A stretch of 64,000 nt of DNA from an uncultured virus (IMG/VR IMGVR_UViG_3300011834_000039). Its lineage: Duplodnaviria; Heunggongvirae; Uroviricota; Caudoviricetes. The notes below the pieces were generated by a model, which saw nothing but the letters and a program-made list of their open reading frames with translations, did not search any database and had not been told where the DNA came from. The position numbers and the translations under genes are program-made. The DNA is taken from IMG/VR virus record IMGVR_UViG_3300011834_000039; one strand, written 5' to 3'. Position 1 is the first letter of the stretch, and every line of letters starts with the position of its first letter. Below, in pieces: positions 17,148-63,297 of this stretch.

Positions 17148-17390
17148 CTACGCCTTCGCCCGATGGATAGCCGGGCGGAAGAACCCGCCGATGAAACCGA
17201 GCGAAGCGCCTATCTGCCACATCGCAAGGCCTGCCGCGTTGATGCCAACGGCGGCAAAGAACGCATGGATCGTCTCTGCGAAAAACAGGCCCACGACCCA
17301 GCCAACGAACGCGCCGCCAAGAACGCCGATGAGCGGTGCGACGAAGAGGACGGCAGCGATTGCTACAAGGCCAGCTAGAGCTTTTTCCAT
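17148..17390 (-). CDS. Small membrane protein
   Basis: 80 aa, hydrophobic, coupled to the upstream ATPase. Confidence 0.7.
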   Translation of the reverse strand: MEKALAGLVAIAAVLFVAPLIGVLGGAFVGWVVGLFFAETIHAFFAAVGINAAGLAMWQIGASLGFIGGFFRPAIHRAKA

Positions 17391-26682: not shown

Positions 26683-26873
26683 TGGCGTCATACACCTTTG
26701 CTGACACCGAACGATGGTTGGACGCCATAGCCGGTGTAATTGCCTACTTTCCGGAAACAGAACAGAATCTGCTGCCACTTTATGAGCGCGTGGAACGAAT
26801 GCAGCGCAGTCTGGCTGCAAACGATAATATTCGCGACCGCATCAAATCACGGCTGCGTCGAACGGCAGCGTGA
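26682..26873 (+). CDS. Small basic protein convergent on the integrase (possible directionality factor)
   Basis: Last gene of the rightward operon; overlaps the integrase 3' end by 32 nt. Confidence 0.55.
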   Translation: MASYTFADTERWLDAIAGVIAYFPETEQNLLPLYERVERMQRSLAANDNIRDRIKSRLRRTAA

Positions 26874-28197
26874 ATTTTTCCATCTGTTCTTTTCGCCATT
26901 CCAGAGAACCGCCCGTGCCATATCGTGGGCGGTCAACTGTATGGCCCATCAACATTCGGCGCAGTTCATCGTCCAGGCCCGCCTCTTTCATGCGGTCCTC
27001 GAATGAATGGCGAAGCGAATATACGGTATAGCCTGCATCTTTTGGGAACAGCTCGTTGTCCTTGAAATATTTATTCAGCGTTGCCGACAGCGTGTCTTCC
27101 TTGTTTTTGTAACGAGGGAAGCCATTCTTATGCTTCTTAAATACCTCATGCGCTATGCCGACCAACGGCAGCTTGCGAACAGACGATGCGGTTTTAATCT
27201 CGCGCGGGTCTGCAGCATCCTTTCGCGGTGCAATCAGGATATGCGGAACCCTGTCGGCCAAGAATATGTGCTCTGCCGTAATGTTGCAAAGTTCACTTGG
27301 TCGACAGCCCGTTTCAATCATCGCCAAGACGATGCCGCGAGCTTCATCATTTAGACCGACGAGTGGTCCGTACGTTAAGAACTTTTCCCGGATTATTTTG
27401 GTCGGGATCGGCGGCCGTGACTTTTCGACCTTCTCTGCAAAGCTCAAATCGCGGAAAGGGTTAGGGCGATCCCTATCGCCCATATGCTTGAAGTATTCGG
27501 CAAAAAGCACGCGCATACCACCCATCATGCGATTGCCCATGCTGGCAGATATCGGCTGCTTCCCTTTGGCTGGCTTCGTTATCATTTGTAGCCAGACCTT
27601 GTAGAATTTCTGCGCGTCTTCGCGCGTTATGTCGGCGATTGCCTTATCCGAGACAATCTTCACAAAATGATCGATCGCCCGCTGCTTGTGTGCGCGCCAA
27701 CGCTTTTTCTGGATTTCGCTCTTGCCCGCCAGTTCATCTGGCGTGATCTCGTCAAAGTAGATTTTCAGAGCTTGAGTCACAGACACTGACGGGATGCTTG
27801 CGGCGCCCACAGCCGCCGCGTCTTCTACCGGATTGCCAGTTACGAGGTTTAGTCGGGCCGCTAGATCGTCATCCGGCATCGCAAGCAGCCTATCGGCTGG
27901 GACATATGAAATGCCAATGACTTCTGCGCGCTTAATGGCAGCATCATAAAGTGCCCGAGCCCTATCGCCATCAGCGCCCGCCTTTAACATTGCCCACAAC
28001 GCGTCATCAGCCGACTCGTACTCGTTGCGCTTCGTCATTGCCCGAGCCAGATCGTTTGTTTTCAGGCTTATGCGGACGATAGGGGCGCGACTATCCTTGC
28101 CTGCTACGGACGTGGGGACGCGGCGAACATACTGATAAACGCCGTCGCGATCTTTCAAATAACGATGAGGGTCTGATTTGATGCGGTACCCAGCCAT
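26842..28197 (-). CDS. Tyrosine integrase with N-terminal DUF6538-like arm-binding domain
   Basis: 'YQYVRRVP...ISLKTND' N-domain; catalytic 'TGCRPSE', 'IKT', 'YSLRHSF', 'MGH', 'RYG'. Confidence 0.93.
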   Translation of the reverse strand: MAGYRIKSDPHRYLKDRDGVYQYVRRVPTSVAGKDSRAPIVRISLKTNDLARAMTKRNEYESADDALWAMLKAGADGDRARALYDAAIKRAEVIGISYVPADRLLAMPDDDLAARLNLVTGNPVEDAAAVGAASIPSVSVTQALKIYFDEITPDELAGKSEIQKKRWRAHKQRAIDHFVKIVSDKAIADITREDAQKFYKVWLQMITKPAKGKQPISASMGNRMMGGMRVLFAEYFKHMGDRDRPNPFRDLSFAEKVEKSRPPIPTKIIREKFLTYGPLVGLNDEARGIVLAMIETGCRPSELCNITAEHIFLADRVPHILIAPRKDAADPREIKTASSVRKLPLVGIAHEVFKKHKNGFPRYKNKEDTLSATLNKYFKDNELFPKDAGYTVYSLRHSFEDRMKEAGLDDELRRMLMGHTVDRPRYGTGGSLEWRKEQMEKFTLPFDAAVI

Positions 28198-38802: not shown

Positions 38803-39309
38803 TTATGCCAGCAGCGCGCTGCGGATGGATTGCGTGCGCGACGTGCCTCCGATGGACACATCAAACGGCGTCATTTCGATCAGGGTCGCCCCTTCGACTT
38901 CCAGCTTGTAGTAGCGAAGCGTGATCGAGAAATCGTTTTCGGCCATGTCACCCGGCTTCCAGGCACCATGATCGTTCTTAATGAGGCGACCGCGAATATA
39001 GGCAGTTGCGTTGACGACGCTGCCATCCTCGTGCACGAGCGCACCGGTCACCATGAACTCGCGCTCGGAACCGACTTCCAGGCCGAACAACGTGATAACC
39101 TGAGGATCAAAGCCGGAGAGCTTGAAACTTGCCTCCAGTTTTTCATAACCCATCGGGATATCAATCGGCAGCACCATACCGGCGTTGCGCAGTTCCTCGA
39201 CCTTTTCCGTCGGCACTGGCAGCGTGATCTCGCTTGCCTGCCCGATCTTCGAAACGCGGTCTGCAAAAATGGTGCAGTTCCGCAGGATATAACGCGGCAT
39301 GTCAGACAT
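38803..39309 (-). CDS. Tail tube protein (P2 FII)
   Basis: 'EITLP...EELRNAGM...MGYEKLE', 'YYKLEVEG'. Confidence 0.92.
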   Translation of the reverse strand: MSDMPRYILRNCTIFADRVSKIGQASEITLPVPTEKVEELRNAGMVLPIDIPMGYEKLEASFKLSGFDPQVITLFGLEVGSEREFMVTGALVHEDGSVVNATAYIRGRLIKNDHGAWKPGDMAENDFSITLRYYKLEVEGATLIEMTPFDVSIGGTSRTQSIRSALLA

Positions 39310-39366
39310 GAGCCTAACCCCTTAATGACGTTGAAGTGGGAGAATTGGAGCGGGATGGGCTGGCCG

Positions 39367-40797
39367 TTAGCCAGCCGATCCGGAAGTGATTTCCTGCGCA
39401 ACCTGATTGAGCAGCAGCGTATAGCTGGCGATATTGCGATATGCCGTAATACGGATATCAACCATCGGTGCAGGCGGTTCGAACTTCACACCAAGCTTGA
39501 TGATGCCTTGCGCCATATCGTTGTCAGTGTTCGTGTCCAGCAACCAACAATCATGACCAGGCAGGATTGCGCCTTCGGCTTCCATCTGTCGGAGGAAAGC
39601 GCGCCCGCCCTCGACCATGAATTTCAGATTGGCGCGGGAGAACGGCTTGTCGACAAATTCGAGATATGCCTTTTCCAGCGCTTCATTGATCGCGTCAGCA
39701 GTGCGCCGCACAGAAATGAATTGCCAGAGAAGTTCTGCCGCGCATGTCCAGACACCCCAGAGCCGGAAGCCGGTATTATCGATATTGACGATAGTATTGA
39801 CCCGGTTTTCATTGAGGTAGTTCGACTGGTCGCCATATTCGATAGGACGGTTGACGCCGACAATGCCGGAGATACCGACATTCGAACCGGACCACCAGAA
39901 GCCTTGCTCCAGGTCCATTTTCGCCTGCTTGGCGGCGAAGATCGGCGAGGATGGAGCCGGAACATTGGCATCAAGTTCCGTGTCGTATTTCAAGACTTTC
40001 GGATCGCAGATCGCGATCCGCCCCGAATTGATCAGCCCACGATACTGCACTGCAGCCTGATCGGTCGTGTCCGGCCCGTCGACATAAGCAACGGCTTTCA
40101 GCTTTTCCGCCACACCCATCAGTTCGGCAACAACCGGGTTCATAACAGAACCGATATTGGCGGTTGCGGTTGCGTCCTTGGATCCAGCCTTGCCAGTGAT
40201 CGTAACCCCCGGTGTTCCGGTATAGCCGTAGCCAGCCTTGCGGACGATAATCGCAGTGATCGCGCCTTCGGCAACAACAGCTTCTGCGACTGCACCCGAT
40301 CCAGTGCCCGTAACCGCAACAGTTGTCGTGTCAGCATCGTAGCCGGTGCCGCCTGCGGTCACATTGATCGAGGCAATGCCGTCGGCTGGCGAGGTCTGGG
40401 TGAAGCCGGGCGCAATAAGCAACTTAGGCTTATAGAGACCGTCCGACGATGCGCGCCGGAATGCATGGACGCCGGTAAAGGCAGTCTGGTCGCCGATCAG
40501 GTTCGACCAGGTTTCGGCGGTCGTTTCGCCTTCCTCAACCCGAACCACGATGATCGGACAGCCGACCTGGTCGAAAATGCTGTCGATAGCGTTTTTCAGC
40601 GTACCGGCATCGCCGAGAGTTGCTGCATCCTGCGGGCGCAGGATCTGCACCGGCTTATTCAGCGGGAACGCAAGTACGTCCGCATTCGGCGCAGTGCCAA
40701 TAAGCCCGATGACGGCAGTGCGCGCCATGCGTACCAGAAGCGGGGTTTCGGCACTTTCGAATACACGCGTGCCGTGGTGAAAGGACACAGATGCCAT
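39367..40797 (-). CDS. Tail sheath protein (P2 FI)
   Basis: 'FHHG', 'TAVIGLIGTA', 'GFWWSGSN', 'GFRLWG', 'F.SVRRT.D'. Confidence 0.95.
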   Translation of the reverse strand: MASVSFHHGTRVFESAETPLLVRMARTAVIGLIGTAPNADVLAFPLNKPVQILRPQDAATLGDAGTLKNAIDSIFDQVGCPIIVVRVEEGETTAETWSNLIGDQTAFTGVHAFRRASSDGLYKPKLLIAPGFTQTSPADGIASINVTAGGTGYDADTTTVAVTGTGSGAVAEAVVAEGAITAIIVRKAGYGYTGTPGVTITGKAGSKDATATANIGSVMNPVVAELMGVAEKLKAVAYVDGPDTTDQAAVQYRGLINSGRIAICDPKVLKYDTELDANVPAPSSPIFAAKQAKMDLEQGFWWSGSNVGISGIVGVNRPIEYGDQSNYLNENRVNTIVNIDNTGFRLWGVWTCAAELLWQFISVRRTADAINEALEKAYLEFVDKPFSRANLKFMVEGGRAFLRQMEAEGAILPGHDCWLLDTNTDNDMAQGIIKLGVKFEPPAPMVDIRITAYRNIASYTLLLNQVAQEITSGSAG

Positions 40798-40847
40798 AGC
40801 GGCACTCCTTGGATTAAGACCTCAGCGGGTCAGGTTTTCAGGAAAAA

Positions 40848-41411
40848 TCAGAGCGCCGGTTGCGGCCACTCAATCGCATCAACAATGGCTCGCGCAGCCG
40901 CTTCATTAGCGGCGGCGTCAATATCGCGTTTGGCACCGAGGCGCACGGCTTCAATTGCAGCACCAATCTGCTGCCAAAGTGAAAAGGCAGCAAGGACAAC
41001 ATCGGCTACCTCGGAAAGCGTTTCTGCAGTAATCCCCACTTCTGACGACAGCACCGGATAGTCGGCAGCTTTTGGGCTGCTCGCAATTTTGAACGCCCGT
41101 GCTTCGACAACCTTCTGCTGATAGGTCATCGCCTGACCTTCACCGGGCGTGATGTATTTCAGGCGCTCTGTTTCAGCCCACGCGTCGACCCCCTGTTTCA
41201 ATGCGCTCTTTAAGGATGACAAGTCTTCCGGGGTAGGTTGTGGCATTAGGAAATCGCCTTCGCCATAAACCCATCCACATTGCACATCATCGTCGCATTG
41301 AACCAGTGCGGCAACAAAGTCGGGCGGAAAGCGCCGGTCAAGATCAATCCCTTCAACCGGCTCGATTATTTCCGCGACAACACCATTTTCAATTCTTGCG
41401 AAATTTGGCAT
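40848..41411 (-). CDS. Tail fibre assembly-associated protein
   Basis: Follows the fibre gene; 'PG..MTY..K..EA', 'IEA.RL.AK'. Confidence 0.7.
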   Translation of the reverse strand: MPNFARIENGVVAEIIEPVEGIDLDRRFPPDFVAALVQCDDDVQCGWVYGEGDFLMPQPTPEDLSSLKSALKQGVDAWAETERLKYITPGEGQAMTYQQKVVEARAFKIASSPKAADYPVLSSEVGITAETLSEVADVVLAAFSLWQQIGAAIEAVRLGAKRDIDAAANEAAARAIVDAIEWPQPAL

Positions 41412-55486: not shown

Positions 55487-56143
55487 TCACAAAGGTTCGA
55501 GAATTGCAATAGGCACGGTCATAGCCACTGGCCTGCCCATAATCGAAACCTCAATCACAACCAGACCGTTGCCTTTTGTTCCACCCGAAACCAGTTCTGC
55601 ACGGCAACCGGCAAAAGGACCGTCGGCCACACGTGCCCATTTCACCCCGATAAACTTCCGGTGAAAATGCTCGTAATCATATTTACCATCTTCGGCTTTC
55701 GCTTTGAAAAGATATACCTTTTCGGCACTGACCAGAAATGGCGCTTCATATCCACCAAGGATCGAAACGACGTGATCGAAACTCAACAGACCGGCAAGGC
55801 ATTCGTTCAAAACTGCACAGCGTACAAGCACGTAACCATTCATGACGGGCTGCTGCTTGGCCGGAATGACTCGATGCTGTCGACGAAGCACCGGCCCCAT
55901 TTTCATGGGGACAAGTACTTCGATATTTTCTTTTTCGAGCGCTTCCCGCACCGAAAGTTCGCGTCCTGACACCACCTGTAGCACCAGCCAAGGAGAATCA
56001 TCGCCCACGCGATTCGCAGCCGCCGCCCTCATTCGAGCGACCCTGCGACGCTCAGCCAGCACCTTGTCGATAGCGCAAGCCTGCTCGAATGTCGGCTGTC
56101 TGGTGATAGCATCTGCAATCTGCTTTGCGTCAATTGCCATCAT
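55487..56143 (-). CDS. NusG-family transcription antiterminator (late regulator)
   Basis: NGN 'W.VLQV.SGRE...P...GYVLV' and KOW 'RVADGPFAG'. Confidence 0.9.
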   Translation of the reverse strand: MMAIDAKQIADAITRQPTFEQACAIDKVLAERRRVARMRAAAANRVGDDSPWLVLQVVSGRELSVREALEKENIEVLVPMKMGPVLRRQHRVIPAKQQPVMNGYVLVRCAVLNECLAGLLSFDHVVSILGGYEAPFLVSAEKVYLFKAKAEDGKYDYEHFHRKFIGVKWARVADGPFAGCRAELVSGGTKGNGLVVIEVSIMGRPVAMTVPIAILEPL

Positions 56144-57302
56144 TTTCACCCAATCCCCTCAGTGCGATTTCGAAACCGTTCAAACCCTCCGGCCCACCAG
56201 CCGGGAAATATGCCCACTCGGCGTTTCCGGGATCCGGGAACCATGGCCAACCCTGCTGGCTGTGAAAATCGGCCCACGCCTTCCATTCGTCGCCGCCAAC
56301 GCGAACCTGCACGAGCAAATCCTTAATCGCCTGCAGGCGAGCTGGAACAAGCGCACCGCGCCCACCGGCTGCGCGCTCGAAAAGCTCATTCACTGCTGGA
56401 AAGCCCTGCTTGGCCTGCTTGTCGTGCAGCAGATATTCCTCGGAATAGCGCCCACTCTCCACCAAGCCACGTTCGATCTGGGTCAGGCCAACAACACGGG
56501 TGGGGCCGTTCAGCAAAAGCTCATAGACCCTTGCACCCCACATCTTGCCCAAAGGCGCTGCCTGCGCAGATCCGGTCTGCTCTACCGTCGCCTTGGCTGG
56601 CAGCTTCTCCCAGCGTCTTTCGCGAAGATAAACCGCATAGGAGCAAACCAGCTTCCGGCCCGTCGCCTTTGCAGCCTCGACGTAGCGCGCAGCCTCGTCG
56701 ACTGCGGCTTGACGTTCCTCTGGCGTCAGAGACAGCCAGACGCGGAAAGCCTCAGGCTCGCTATCGGAAATCGCCGTAGGCCAACCATGGAAACCACGCT
56801 TGAACGAACGCTCGACAGATTTCCGGCTTTCCCTTCCATCGTCCTCATTCTCGCGCGCTCTCTCACCTAATGGTTTATCTAATGGTTCTATTACGGTTTG
56901 GGTGACACCGTGACACCCGTCGGCGTCGTCAATGTCACCCGTCGGTGCTTCCGTTGTCACGGGTGACACCGTGACACCCGTGACACCATGACACCCGTCG
57001 ACAGCAGGTTTTCCCGCCTGCAAATTGTCCAATGCCCGCATATCGAAATCGTACCGCGTGGCCTGCCCCGGTCGCCCGCCGCCCTCGGCCACGACGATCA
57101 GCAACCCTTCATCGACGAAGTCGCGCAGAAGACGCTGCACCGTGCGCTCGGATAGCTCCGTTTCAAGCGCAAGCCGTCCAACTGTAGGCCAGATCCCGCG
57201 CCCGTCATCGTCCGCGAAATCTGCCAGACGGATCGCGAGCATCTTGCGGCTGGGAGATCCAAGTTGCGCCTTGAACAGGCGCGACATGACAGCGATGCTC
57301 AT
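56130..57302 (-). CDS. Replication initiator (N-terminal HTH, lambda O-like)
   Basis: 'LADFADDDG..IWP.V..LA.ETELSERTVQR.L'; internal iterons. Confidence 0.85.
   Translation of the reverse strand: MSIAVMSRLFKAQLGSPSRKMLAIRLADFADDDGRGIWPTVGRLALETELSERTVQRLLRDFVDEGLLIVVAEGGGRPGQATRYDFDMRALDNLQAGKPAVDGCHGVTGVTVSPVTTEAPTGDIDDADGCHGVTQTVIEPLDKPLGERARENEDDGRESRKSVERSFKRGFHGWPTAISDSEPEAFRVWLSLTPEERQAAVDEAARYVEAAKATGRKLVCSYAVYLRERRWEKLPAKATVEQTGSAQAAPLGKMWGARVYELLLNGPTRVVGLTQIERGLVESGRYSEEYLLHDKQAKQGFPAVNELFERAAGGRGALVPARLQAIKDLLVQVRVGGDEWKAWADFHSQQGWPWFPDPGNAEWAYFPAGGPEGLNGFEIALRGLGENDGN
56901..57000. repeat. Iterons (replication origin) inside the initiator gene
   Basis: TGACACC at 56903, 56911, 56964, 56972, 56981, 56989; inverted TGTCAC at 56933 and 56955. 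Confidence 0.85.
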
Positions 57303-60738: not shown

Positions 60739-60849
60739 GTCACCGCCCCGCAAGAAACAGAAAGAAGATGAGAAAAGCCGCGACTGGTGACTCAGCAACC
60801 AACGCGGCACAAACGATCAGCGCGACCTCGCGCGGCTGGAAACGAGCGG

Positions 60850-61116
60850 TCATGGACCGATCCGCCGAAGCGGCTCCCTGCCATGCATCTTGCGAAAATC
60901 GTCGCGCAGCTCGGCCAGCTTTTCCCAGCCGGTGACCTGCCAGCGTCCATCAAACCGCTTGATGGCAAAGCGATTGCCCTTGCGCCGAACCTCGACGCCA
61001 AACCCAAGCAGTTCATATTGCGTGGCATCAAAACTGGATCTGGCACCGGATTCGAAGCGACGAGGCCCGCCATTTGCAGCCAACCATTGCTCTACGAGTG
61101 AGGAAACAGCGGTCAT
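60850..61116 (-). CDS. Hypothetical protein
   Basis: ATGA-coupled to the cII-like gene. Confidence 0.65.
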   Translation of the reverse strand: MTAVSSLVEQWLAANGGPRRFESGARSSFDATQYELLGFGVEVRRKGNRFAIKRFDGRWQVTGWEKLAELRDDFRKMHGREPLRRIGP

Positions 61117-61589
61117 TTTCCTGCCTCCAGACGCAGCAATACGTCCTCCAGCGCTCGGATCGCCTCGCGTACTTCCTTGGTGATTTCCCGCTTTTCACCC
61201 GCGTCAATGCGTCCATCTTCCAGCGCCGTAACGATGGATTTCGAAACGTCCATCGTCTCGGACATGACGCGGTGTGCATCCATTTCCGTGAGGGGCACAT
61301 TGTCGGGGGCTTTCATAGCCCCGGATGTTGCCGGGACAAGTTCATATCCGAGCAATCCGGCTGCGGCCTTTATGATCGTCGGTGTTTTCGCACGCCGGTC
61401 GACCTCGACCGCGACATCAATCGGCATGAAGCTGTCGGCATGTTCTTCGCCAAACGATGCGTACTTGGAAAGCGTCGACACGCCGACACGGGTAAAGGGC
61501 ACGATGCAGGAAATGCCGCCCGACAGCATGTATGCGCCATCGGTAGCAGACTTGAGGGAACGCTGTTCTTGCTCGGAAATTGTGCGCAC
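61113..61589 (-). CDS. CII-like phage regulatory protein
   Basis: 'GG.....FTRV..S.LS.Y...F.P.DV', 'ALEDG.ID..E...I'; downstream of cro. Confidence 0.75.
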   Translation of the reverse strand: MRTISEQEQRSLKSATDGAYMLSGGISCIVPFTRVGVSTLSKYASFGEEHADSFMPIDVAVEVDRRAKTPTIIKAAAGLLGYELVPATSGAMKAPDNVPLTEMDAHRVMSETMDVSKSIVTALEDGRIDAGEKREITKEVREAIRALEDVLLRLEAGK

Positions 61590-61722
61590 GGAAACACCCC
61601 TGAAAATTTCAAGGAAAAAAGTTCGTCAAAGGATTCGATGAAGTTGGTCAGCCCAGCCGGTACGACTGAGAAATCAGATTAACCAGGTGGCCCACAGGCT
61701 GAGGAAACGACCGATGAAGTCA

Positions 61723-62262
61723 TTACACCGCACTCCCCAGAACAGAGGATGCCGGGGCGCGTCCGGCGTCGTCCTTACGGCGCGCCCCGACATTTACGCC
61801 CGATGGGAGGATATCAGGCGATTTCGAAACATCGGGGAGCACAGCAGAAGTATGAAATGCTGCACCCCCCTCACCGCCCGAGCCGGAGAAGTCGGGCGAT
61901 TGGAAACTGGTTGCAGGAGCGGGATTCGAACCCGCGACCTGTTGGGTATGAACCAACTGAGCTACCGCTGCTCTATCCTGCGACAAAGAAGCTGGAGCGT
62001 CCGAGGGCGGCAGGGACGCTCCAGCATCGCCCGCAGAGGAACATGCGGGCGATACGAGAGGCGGACCAAAAACATCAGGGCGTAAAAGGTGACGGGAGAT
62101 ACCCGTCAGGCGCTCTACTTCCAATACGCGCTCCGGCGGCACGACAAACCACTGGTTTACCGCTTGAGGTGTAATGCGAAGCGCACGTGCCAATGAGCTG
62201 GCACCTTCTGCCCGTTCTTTAGCGGCCTCTAGGGCCTGATGCATTTCGTTTTTGTCAGCCAT
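61723..62262 (-). CDS. cro: Cro/YdaS-family HTH regulator with long low-complexity extension
   Basis: 'G.S.LARAL.ITPQAV.QW..VP.ERV..VE..TG.SRH.LRPD.FG'; divergent from cI. Confidence 0.88.
   Translation of the reverse strand: MADKNEMHQALEAAKERAEGASSLARALRITPQAVNQWFVVPPERVLEVERLTGISRHLLRPDVFGPPLVSPACSSAGDAGASLPPSDAPASLSQDRAAVAQLVHTQQVAGSNPAPATSFQSPDFSGSGGEGGAAFHTSAVLPDVSKSPDILPSGVNVGARRKDDAGRAPASSVLGSAV
61908..61982 (-). tRNA. tRNA-Met(CAT), initiator-like, with encoded CCA
   Basis: Full 75-nt cloverleaf: CGCAGGA/TCCTGCA (C1xA72), D stem GAGC/GCTC, anticodon stem GTTGG/CCAAC with loop TTCATAC, T arm GCGGG-TTCGAAT-CCCGC, ACCA. Confidence 0.95.
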
Positions 62263-62270
62263 GCTGATTT

Positions 62271-62307
62271 TTAAAGCATAGCTTTCATTGCAATGCAAGG
62301 AATTCTT
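62271..62307 (-). promoter_or_regulatory. cro promoter and operators
   Basis: Minus strand CTTGCA-N17-CTTTAA; AAG-N5-CTT palindromes at 62274-62284 and 62297-62307. Confidence 0.65.
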
Positions 62308-62309
62308 AA

Positions 62310-63041
62310 ATGGACGAAATTATCCACATTGAGTCACATCCCAATATGGATGAGACACAACTCGCTCTGAAAATCGGAACGGCTTTGCGGACTGCTAGAA
62401 AGCAGCGCGGCCTTGTCATGCGCGACATCGCACAGGCTGCGGGCGTGAGCACAGGTGCCGTGGGCAACTGGGAACGCGGCGCAAATGTCATGTCGATGGA
62501 AAACTTGCAGGCCGTGGCGAGCTATCTTGAGATTGACCCCATCGCACTTAGCAAAGGCGATGTGAAATTCTTATCCGAGACGCAGCCGGTCTCGGATGCT
62601 GAAATAATCTCGGATGCTGGCCACATTGACACCGGCCCACTTGATGTAGAGATCCTTGGCGTTGCAGTCGGCGGCGACGACGGTGACTTCACTCTTAATG
62701 GAGAAGTCTCTGGATACGCACGTCGCCCAGCAGGGATCGCGCACCTTAGAAAAGTATTTGCACTTCATGTTCTTAGCGACAGCATGGTTCCCCGGTATGA
62801 ACCCGGAGAACTGCTATATTGCGGCGGACGTGACGCCGTTTCTGGAGACGATGTAGTCATCGAAATGTTTCCAGAGCAAGGCGAAACCGTCGGCAAAGCA
62901 TACATCAAAAGACTAGTGAAACGCTCGAAAACCGAAATTGTCTGCAAGCAGTACAACCCTGCAAAAGAACTTATCTTCGATCCATACGCCATCAAGAATA
63001 TGTGGCGCGTGATACCTACGCGCGAGCTTCTCGGCTATTGA
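62310..63041 (+). CDS. cI: CI repressor (XRE HTH + S24 peptidase)
   Basis: HTH 'LR.AR..RGL...DIA...GVS..AVGNWERG'; 'AVGG'; 'DSMVP' Ser; 'IKRL' Lys. Confidence 0.93.
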   Translation: MDEIIHIESHPNMDETQLALKIGTALRTARKQRGLVMRDIAQAAGVSTGAVGNWERGANVMSMENLQAVASYLEIDPIALSKGDVKFLSETQPVSDAEIISDAGHIDTGPLDVEILGVAVGGDDGDFTLNGEVSGYARRPAGIAHLRKVFALHVLSDSMVPRYEPGELLYCGGRDAVSGDDVVIEMFPEQGETVGKAYIKRLVKRSKTEIVCKQYNPAKELIFDPYAIKNMWRVIPTRELLGY

Positions 63042-63297
63042 TTGCATAAGCTTCTGCATAAATTCGAGCAGTTGAACTGACGTACGTTGGGTTCAGGCTA
63101 ATGTTGCGCCCTGGCAACCCTTCATCCCGGCAACCAGCACAAAATAACTTTAGTCCCAACTGACGAATCGTCGTTTTGGGACCTATGCCAACACGATACA
63201 AATCGTGAGGCTTACGCCATCTGATACGCCCGCAATCTGCACACTCGATCTCAATTACCGACGTAGATCCTACGGTTGGCTCCTGCACACAAGACAT
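63016..63297 (-). CDS. Zn-ribbon protein convergent on cI
   Basis: 'CADC...L.C.GC'; overlaps the cI 3' end by 26 nt. Confidence 0.72.
   Translation of the reverse strand: MSCVQEPTVGSTSVIEIECADCGRIRWRKPHDLYRVGIGPKTTIRQLGLKLFCAGCRDEGLPGRNISLNPTYVSSTARIYAEAYAINSREARA

Follow-up and report, generated by a model that had tools for sequence, protein, structure and literature searches.

The analysed window, a stretch of 64,000 nucleotides from an uncultured virus (IMG/VR record IMGVR_UViG_3300011834_000039), was shown by PHROGs annotation to carry a prophage in its last 37 kb, which is encoded nearly throughout on the minus strand. Towards the immunity region, the prophage genes specify an antiterminator homologue, a replication initiator and two methyltransferases (PHROGs). 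A 743-residue ORF at 38830-41061 (+) is oriented against the tail genes around it and has no PHROG match at 1e-5. The immunity region itself, located at 61.1-63.0 kb, comprises a cI-like repressor gene (phrog_4 transcriptional repressor match, 8.4e-20), a divergent cro-like gene separated from it by a 47-bp control region, and a cII-like gene on the cro strand (phrog_101 match, 1.3e-19). With an HTH-S24 repressor divergent from cro and cII downstream of cro, the arrangement is that of a lambda-type immunity module, and this region is that of a temperate phage of the Brucella (ex-Ochrobactrum)/Mesorhizobium group. The features identified at this locus are listed in Table 1.

Table 1. Features of the prophage and its immunity region (positions are those of the window)
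Feature	Position	Strand	Basis or remark
Integrase	26842-28197		Prophage end gene, then tail, head and terminase genes
Antiterminator homologue	55487-56149		PHROGs
cII-like activator (CP76 family), GTG start	61113..61589	-	Pfam Phage_CP76 3.4e-10
Small ORF MTSSVVSSACGPPG	61679..61723	-	ATG shares one base with the cro stop (TAATG)
In-frame tail of cro, residues 68-179 and stop TAA	61723..62061	-	Made of RNA elements
Hairpin 4 (GGGGCGCG...CGCGCCCC)	61754..61788	-	Also in tRNA-less relatives, compensatory changes
Hairpin 3, repeat copy, loop AUCCUCCC	61797..61821	-	Also in tRNA-less relatives
78-nt in-frame insertion with a further repeat copy (61875-61899)	61830..61907	-	Alignment
tRNA(CAT) gene, initiator type, CCA encoded	61908..61982	-	ARAGORN and Rfam
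Hairpin 2, 12-bp G+C-rich stem with 11-nt loop (61991-62025), then UUCUUUGU	61983..62025	-	Fold; terminator-like
Hairpin 1, copy of repeat TCGCCYG-N11-CGGGCG	62028..62052	-	Fold and repeat scan
Cro-like DNA-binding domain (YdaS/Cro family), residues 1-67	62062..62262	-	Pfam and AlphaFold
cI-like repressor (HTH and S24 peptidase)	62310..63041	+	Pfam HTH_3 3.7e-9, Peptidase_S24 2.2e-5

The cro-like frame extends on the minus strand from an ATG at position 62262 to a TAA stop at 61725-61723, and encompasses the tRNA gene in sense. An earlier note on this DNA had described the frame as open for 179 residues straight through the tRNA, with a Cro domain ending near residue 65. The ORF translation confirmed the former, all 179 codons being open, and Pfam analysis, in which the Cro/YdaS HTH families PF15943 and PF14549 were tested, bore out the latter by placing the domain at residues 15-67 (YdaS_toxin, 50.8 bits versus a cut-off of 30), with a P22_Cro match at residues 21-54 (31.3 bits versus a cut-off of 30.2). 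No Pfam match was obtained in the tail. An AlphaFold model built on 23 aligned sequences displayed pLDDT values of 78-93 for residues 1-70, compared with about 44, without secondary structure, for residues 71-179, and the tail peptide is thus predicted to be unfolded.

ARAGORN identified a single tRNA in the whole 64-kb window, on the minus strand and with anticodon CAT, and Rfam reported a match to RF00005 (64.6 bits versus a cut-off of 29, E=4.4e-13) spanning full-length positions 1-71. The two programs agree with each other and with the boundaries given in the earlier note, which had recognised a complete tRNA gene in sense within the cro frame. Bacterial initiator tRNAs are distinguished by an unpaired position 1:72, an A11:U24 pair and three G:C pairs at the bottom of the anticodon stem, and the window tRNA, here taken to be of the initiator type, was examined for each of them. 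For comparison, the tRNA(CAT) located just downstream of the 5S rRNA in the Brucella pecoris genome that holds relative L006 was used. Position 1:72 is unpaired in both tRNAs (C1xA72), and the D stem GAGC/GCUC, including A11:U24, is identical. The anticodon stem of the window tRNA (GUUGG/CCAAC) has two G:C pairs next to the loop plus U29-A41, and that of the host tRNA (UCAGG/CCUGA) also has just two (A29-U41); all three consecutive G:C pairs are found in the Mesorhizobium variant L009 (CCGGG/CCCGG). Because the L009 tRNA keeps the 1:72 mismatch with another base (A1xA72), and retains the anticodon stem through three double changes relative to the window tRNA, the comparison argues for a functional tRNA of the initiator type. 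In the genomes of three relatives, no identical host copy of this tRNA was detected besides the prophage copies.

The anticodon loops of the phage tRNA (UUCAUAC) and of the host rrn-linked copy (CUCAUAA; L091 1819-1895) differ at positions 32 and 38, which would be in keeping with evasion of an anticodon nuclease, for instance a VapC-type toxin. It has been proposed that changed anticodon loops allow phage tRNAs to escape host tRNases (PMC10264068).

The three hairpins named in the earlier note (61991-62025, 61875-61898 and 61754-61788) were all recovered in computed folds. The 12-bp stem at 61991-62025 and an adjacent 9-bp stem jointly reached -42.4 kcal/mol (z -6.84), while the hairpin at 61754-61788 and its neighbour reached -49.1 kcal/mol (z -3.35); that at 61875-61898 is present in a stretch which, as a whole, folds weakly (z -1.78). 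The tail carries three copies of the 25-nt hairpin repeat, spaced 153 and 78 nt apart, and the 78-nt insertion was found, among the aligned relatives, in the window, L006 and L026 (and in L021, which is identical to L006). All length differences are multiples of three, i.e. 153 nt, 78 nt and 32 versus 35 nt for hairpin 4. In the alignment of hairpins 3 and 4, 99.6% of cells are paired and three of the 12 outer pairs, to which the covariation count was confined as bulges shift the register of the inner stems, are changed on both sides, a result reached by none of 500 shuffles; both hairpins are thus structurally conserved. Elsewhere in the window, and outside the immunity region, the repeat TCGCCYG-N(6-16)-CRGGCG also occurs at 17156-17177 (+) and 41129-41149 (+), the window as a whole containing six matches versus 0.24 expected.

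Hairpin 2, the U-rich tail of which (UUCUUUGU, six U in eight) ends at the tRNA 5' end, is kept in the Brucella-type relatives, while hairpins 1 and 2 are absent from the Mesorhizobium version. Its 12-bp stem and U-rich tail directly follow the Cro domain, and it is conceivable that they form an intrinsic terminator like tR1 of lambda, at which termination would be suppressed by cro translation through the hairpin; most early transcripts would then end before the tRNA, and expression of the tRNA, the leader ORF and cII would be gated by cro translation. The frame runs through hairpin 2 in every Brucella-type locus and the prophage encodes an antiterminator homologue, both in keeping with this idea. 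We nevertheless regard it as improbable, given that the 11-nt loop is outside the usual range, and a terminator scan in which loops of 3-8 nt were allowed did not call hairpin 2. Moreover, the Mesorhizobium version has a nested tRNA without hairpins 1 and 2, and the open frame beyond hairpin 2 would be left unexplained.

Judged by the window alone, the openness of the frame exceeds chance expectation only marginally: when the tail of 112 codons was subjected to 20000 mononucleotide shuffles, 1105 (5.5%) were stop-free, and two plus-strand frames are likewise open across the region, so that the case rests on the relatives. The G+C content of the tail by codon position is.70/.63/.55, compared with about.63/.44/.65 in neighbouring genes. 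Among 12 close relatives, the variable columns of the tail are distributed over the codon positions as 13/20/19, without third-position bias, and the changes comprise 24 synonymous versus 36 non-synonymous ones. The tail is thus devoid of a coding signature and its peptide is not conserved. Those tail residues that are conserved (GAR...RAP, SP..LPSG) are encoded by stems, and the stop-freeness of the tail could largely come from the G+C-rich conserved stems and from the tRNA itself.

These data raise the question of whether the open frame is a functionless by-product, that is, an untranslated or irrelevant leader RNA of G+C-rich hairpins and a tRNA which lack stops in one frame by chance, the arrangement having been spread by shared ancestry and by module exchange at a linker in the cro 3' end. 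The shuffle result, the absence of peptide conservation and codon-position bias, the atypical second-position G+C content, the predicted unfolded state of the tail and the two open plus-strand frames all fit such a reading, as do the dispensability of nesting in relative L024 (see below) and the near identity of the module among most loci. We consider it quite unlikely all the same, as a ribosome starting at cro meets no stop, implying that the tail would be translated whenever the RNA is intact, and as several properties of the relatives described below speak against it.

Relatives were gathered by a cII protein search, which yielded 47 loci (12 genome and 35 viral contigs), 15 of which possess a tRNA upstream of cII on the same strand. 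Only one frame of the tRNA is stop-free, the other two meeting TAG at tRNA positions 8-10 or 19-21, and this frame is open in 15 of the 15 tRNA-bearing loci and in the window. Following removal of identical copies, 14 distinct tRNA-bearing loci remained; the frame begins with a cro-like gene in 13 of these, whose cro-like genes represent four of the five unrelated HTH families found overall. None of these 13 has a stop before the tRNA, the condition which the earlier note had named as refuting its reading, and a recent stop loss in the window does not account for the open frame. In the exception, L024, cro has a stop of its own immediately behind hairpin 2, and approximately 610 nt separate cro from the tRNA; this gap includes an opposite-strand ORF, of which the open frame is an antisense shadow. 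The L024-type 'proteins' P0035 and P0036 were considered as a further cro type and rejected for the same reason. When database sequences were added, the N-terminal parts of 39 tRNA-tail proteins fell into six blastp clusters, corresponding to the five HTH families and the L024-like shadow, although protein-database matches are biased in that open frames alone are recorded there. A pattern scan of metagenome contigs retrieved six loci, five of which are members of the family and all nested (two are identical to known loci); the sixth has a different tRNA that is not nested, and L064 represents a similar non-nested control. A search for RNA evidence returned 24 sequencing runs, all in the form of assembled contigs and none containing half of the query words; the four that were aligned to the window gave short matches only, such as a contig of 163 nt at 61920-62082 from a run that is probably DNA, and these carry neither RNA ends nor joints nor strand information.

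The nearest provirus, G001, exhibits 96% identity over hairpin 2 and the tRNA and 92% over cII, yet its cro gene, which is unrelated to that of the window, enters the module in the same frame. Eight distinct relatives without a tRNA (cII approximately 70% identical) carry three of the same cro types, again in frame through hairpins 3 and 4, with the cro stop 144-147 nt before cII, and the in-frame tail is accordingly older than the tRNA. Among all 22 distinct loci with a cII identity of at least 65%, which take in the diverged Mesorhizobium and B. rhizosphaerae versions, the frame through hairpins 3 and 4 is open in every case and starts with a recognisable cro-like gene in 21. It ends 131-147 nt before cII in 16 loci, and 825-931 nt before cII in four with extra DNA at that position. 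Across these 22 loci, tails of 35-113 codons contain no in-frame stop, compared with 0-4 stops in frame +1 and 2-8 in frame +2. These relatives do not represent independent cases, however: because the module is approximately 96% identical among Brucella-type loci, the effective number of independent junctions is about five. Even so, the entry of five unrelated HTH families into the module in the same frame, the length differences in multiples of three and the absence of stops in this one frame in 22 of 22 loci are difficult to reconcile with a by-product, as is the nature of the position at which the frame ends.

In 17 of the 22 representative loci, the cro stop overlaps an ATG, as TAATG in the window and as ATGA in most relatives. 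The small ORF that begins there is preceded by a GGGGAG Shine-Dalgarno-like site and, in the window, ends in CGPPG-stop. The ORF occupies the same position in L005-L049, and a CGPP-type motif was found in 32 of 38 distinct leaders, located 90-99 nt (in one case 115 nt) before cII and in the same direction, as CGPP in 30 leaders, RGPP in one and CDPP in one. Codon usage for the successive motif residues is TGT 24/TGC 7, GGT 19/GGG 11/GGA 1, CCC 11/CCG 10/CCA 9/CCT 2 and CCT 21/CCC 5/CCG 5/CCA 1; because all four codons vary synonymously, the peptide, and not the RNA alone, is under selection, CGPP being conserved at the peptide level. In distant Rhizobium-type relatives, different and unrelated cro types all end in ...EAAE*, the codons of which constitute the AGGAGG site and spacer of the small ORF. 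This shared end means that the exchangeable immunity module finishes within the cro 3' end, at the start-stop overlap, thereby fixing the cro frame relative to the leader. It is hence the place where the cro frame ends that is conserved, namely a stop overlapping the small-ORF ATG approximately 95 nt before cII.

By analogy, the CGPP ORF may serve as a translational sensor in front of cII. RAPP-like arrest peptides, as described in PMC12992588, are also encoded by a small co-directional ORF upstream of the regulated gene, with a C-terminal X-G-P-P at or near the stop, a placement which the CGPP motif shares. The RAPP core described there, R-(A/G)-P-P, is not present as such, since Cys replaces Arg in 30 of the 32 leaders; the single RGPP leader is the one relative that has Arg. 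The CGPP ORF represents a second, independent lead on cII control in alphaproteobacterial phages. Closer to cII, a small predicted hairpin at 61597-61615 (-), UCCUUGAA-AUU-UUCAGGGG, pairs the likely cII Shine-Dalgarno sequence (GTG at 61589) with a conserved upstream UUUCCUUGA; the surrounding stretch folds no better than shuffles (z -0.11).

The explanation we favour, with a probability of roughly 0.55, is that cro has to be translated to the junction with the small ORF, and that its 3' end received the hairpins and the tRNA gene as in-frame insertions. Selection would act to have ribosomes travel all the way from the start of cro to this junction, the tail peptide not being its target; reaching the junction may serve to couple cro to the leader ORF, to maintain translation across a long structured leader, or both. 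Within this interval the lineage would have gained in-frame structured RNA, i.e. copies of the 25-nt repeat, the 12-bp hairpin and, in one sub-lineage, a whole initiator-type tRNA gene, insertions between cro and the junction being tolerated only if in frame and stop-free. We infer that a single promoter serves this transcription unit. A scan for sigma-70 promoters across 60800-63200 returned no sites, and a promoter of its own for the tRNA was rejected on spacing alone, the gene lying 8 nt behind hairpin 2; because this leaves no room for a promoter, the tRNA would have to derive from early rightward transcription. Whenever RNase P and 3' processing excise the tRNA, the early transcript would be split into a stop-less cro mRNA, ending in hairpins 1 and 2 and the U-rich tail, and a separate leader-cII RNA, and translation through the tRNA and tRNA maturation would therefore compete for one RNA. 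Several observations weigh against translation to the junction as the selected property: the small ORF has its own Shine-Dalgarno-like site, so that coupling may be unneeded, L024 carries its tRNA outside the cro frame, the tail combines the lack of a coding signature with a second-position G+C content of 0.63 and the 5.5% of stop-free shuffles, and the relatives share a near-identical module with only some five independent junctions.

The earlier note had placed the emphasis on the products of excision, proposing that processing would leave a stop-less cro mRNA, as a substrate for tmRNA tagging, and a separated cII message, and would tie the lysis-lysogeny switch to tRNA maturation. Both products follow logically if the tRNA is excised; the conservation, in contrast, does not point to the non-stop state as the property under selection. 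That the stop-less design is itself the selected function is, in our view, unlikely. RNase P excision, or termination at hairpin 2, would in that case generate a non-stop cro message whose product is tmRNA-tagged and degraded, making the Cro level and the lysis-lysogeny choice dependent on tRNA processing and host trans-translation, as is the case for ArfA synthesis. The arfA gene offers a precedent (PMC3989581): a functional domain is followed by a conserved hairpin in the same ORF, cleavage or termination there removes the stop, the product is tagged, and the full-length tail is dispensable. RNase III cleavage, tagging and regulation are demonstrated for arfA according to the same text, while the cut by tRNA processing is a prediction here. 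A conserved hairpin in the 3' part of the ORF is present in the Brucella-type relatives (hairpins 1 and 2) but not in the Mesorhizobium version and, unlike in arfA, the downstream frame and stop are themselves conserved. The 13 of 14 distinct loci lacking a stop between Cro domain and tRNA would fit such a design, as would a strong hairpin with a U-rich tail 8 nt before the RNase P site, which could provide a terminator-like, exonuclease-resistant 3' end. Furthermore, growth of lambda-immP22 depends on trans-translation, the cause of which is described as not understood in a 2010 report (PMC2862035). A tmRNA-based switch, however, has no use for an open frame past the 5' end of the tRNA, yet the frame persists through the tRNA, the 78-nt insertion and hairpins 3 and 4 up to the conserved stop, and the eight tRNA-less relatives retain an in-frame tail without any RNase P site. 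Two other frames are equally stop-less up to the tRNA and are never used, L009-type and L024 tRNA copies are not preceded by hairpin 2, and L024 has a cro stop before its tRNA.

A more elaborate reading, in which translation of cro to the junction and tRNA excision represent two exclusive transcript fates, is doubtful. In the first fate, ribosomes would hold the tRNA segment unfolded, resulting in a long Cro protein and coupled expression of cII and the leader ORF. Folding and excision of the segment in the second fate would release an initiator tRNA together with a cII message that is no longer coupled and a stop-less cro mRNA capped by hairpins, the product of which would be tmRNA-tagged. 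The lysis-lysogeny choice would then respond directly to translation load, to RNase P activity and to the capacity for trans-translation, with an arrest-type CGPP leader adding a second translational sensor ahead of cII.

Compared with the cI-cro-cII regions of lambda and P22, the locus has the same divergent repressor/cro pair with cII following cro, and the interval between cro and cII is likewise structured and regulatory, holding nutR/tR1 in lambda. Here, unlike in those phages, cro ends at an overlap with the small CGPP ORF, and the cro-cII interval lies inside the cro frame and contains a tRNA gene. Excision of tRNAs is also known to set the ends of flanking mRNAs, both in the tRNA punctuation of mitochondrial transcripts and in bacterial mRNA-tRNA co-transcripts (secG-leuU), and mitochondrial mRNAs can lack a complete stop after tRNA excision. 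In those systems ORFs abut the tRNA, whereas here the ORF runs through the tRNA and 61 codons beyond. Phage tRNA-Met/fMet genes are documented in phiLM21-like rhizobial prophages (PMC12429752), likewise as a single tRNA(CAT) gene in a temperate Rhizobiales phage. In phiLM21, that tRNA is an isolated gene flanked by an HNH gene and the terminase genes, which are encoded on the other strand, as opposed to the in-sense position inside a cro-like frame observed here. In a collection of published phages, matches were confined to the tRNA itself, over 3-4% of the query, the best being to Ochrobactrum phage POI1126 (KY417925.1 6927-7011, L001 3001-3085; 84.7% identity), in a stretch for which the record lists no tRNA feature and which partially overlaps the hypothetical gene gp08 on the other strand. 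POI1126 and phiLM21 were rejected as parallels of the nesting, their tRNA contexts being unrelated. The literature outside subscription journals yielded no account of a cro frame that contains a tRNA gene in sense, and the CGPP leader ORF was absent from that same literature, which had been searched for the nested tRNA rather than for this ORF. Phage tRNA(CAT) genes and the cI-cro-cII layout are thus known, and what would appear to be new is the in-sense nesting in the cro frame.

As a rule, a stretch of DNA is taken to be either a tRNA gene or a coding frame, an exclusion that is built into annotation pipelines; cro genes of the present type are prone to being truncated, dropped or annotated as 'hypothetical' proteins of 130-180 residues. 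At this locus, a functional-looking tRNA lies in sense in the frame of a key switch gene, and this position is retained in the majority of a phage group whose cro domains are interchangeable. If translation and excision do compete, the locus would link a developmental switch to the condition of the translation machinery in a new manner, and would provide a natural system for programmed non-stop mRNAs in phages.

Additional elements were observed at the module junctions of relatives. Opposite-strand ORFs of 177-222 residues without Pfam match (L003 699-1367, opposite to cro, and L024 1436-1969 (-)) resemble morons and are inserted precisely at these junctions, following the tail in loci of the G001 type and adjoining the 5' end of the tRNA in L024. 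The G001-type loci also have a further ORF of 83 residues, whose ATG (ATGGCTGA) is overlapped by the cro stop. Finally, a third prophage of the genome that also holds L007 and L008 encodes a YdaS-type cro gene of 169 residues with the same in-frame tail (L093 1423-1932); at the place of the tRNA it contains an 80-nt non-tRNA insert with the direct repeat AATTCTAATTCGC on both flanks, and its cro stop overlaps a small ORF encoding MIWRGCDP.
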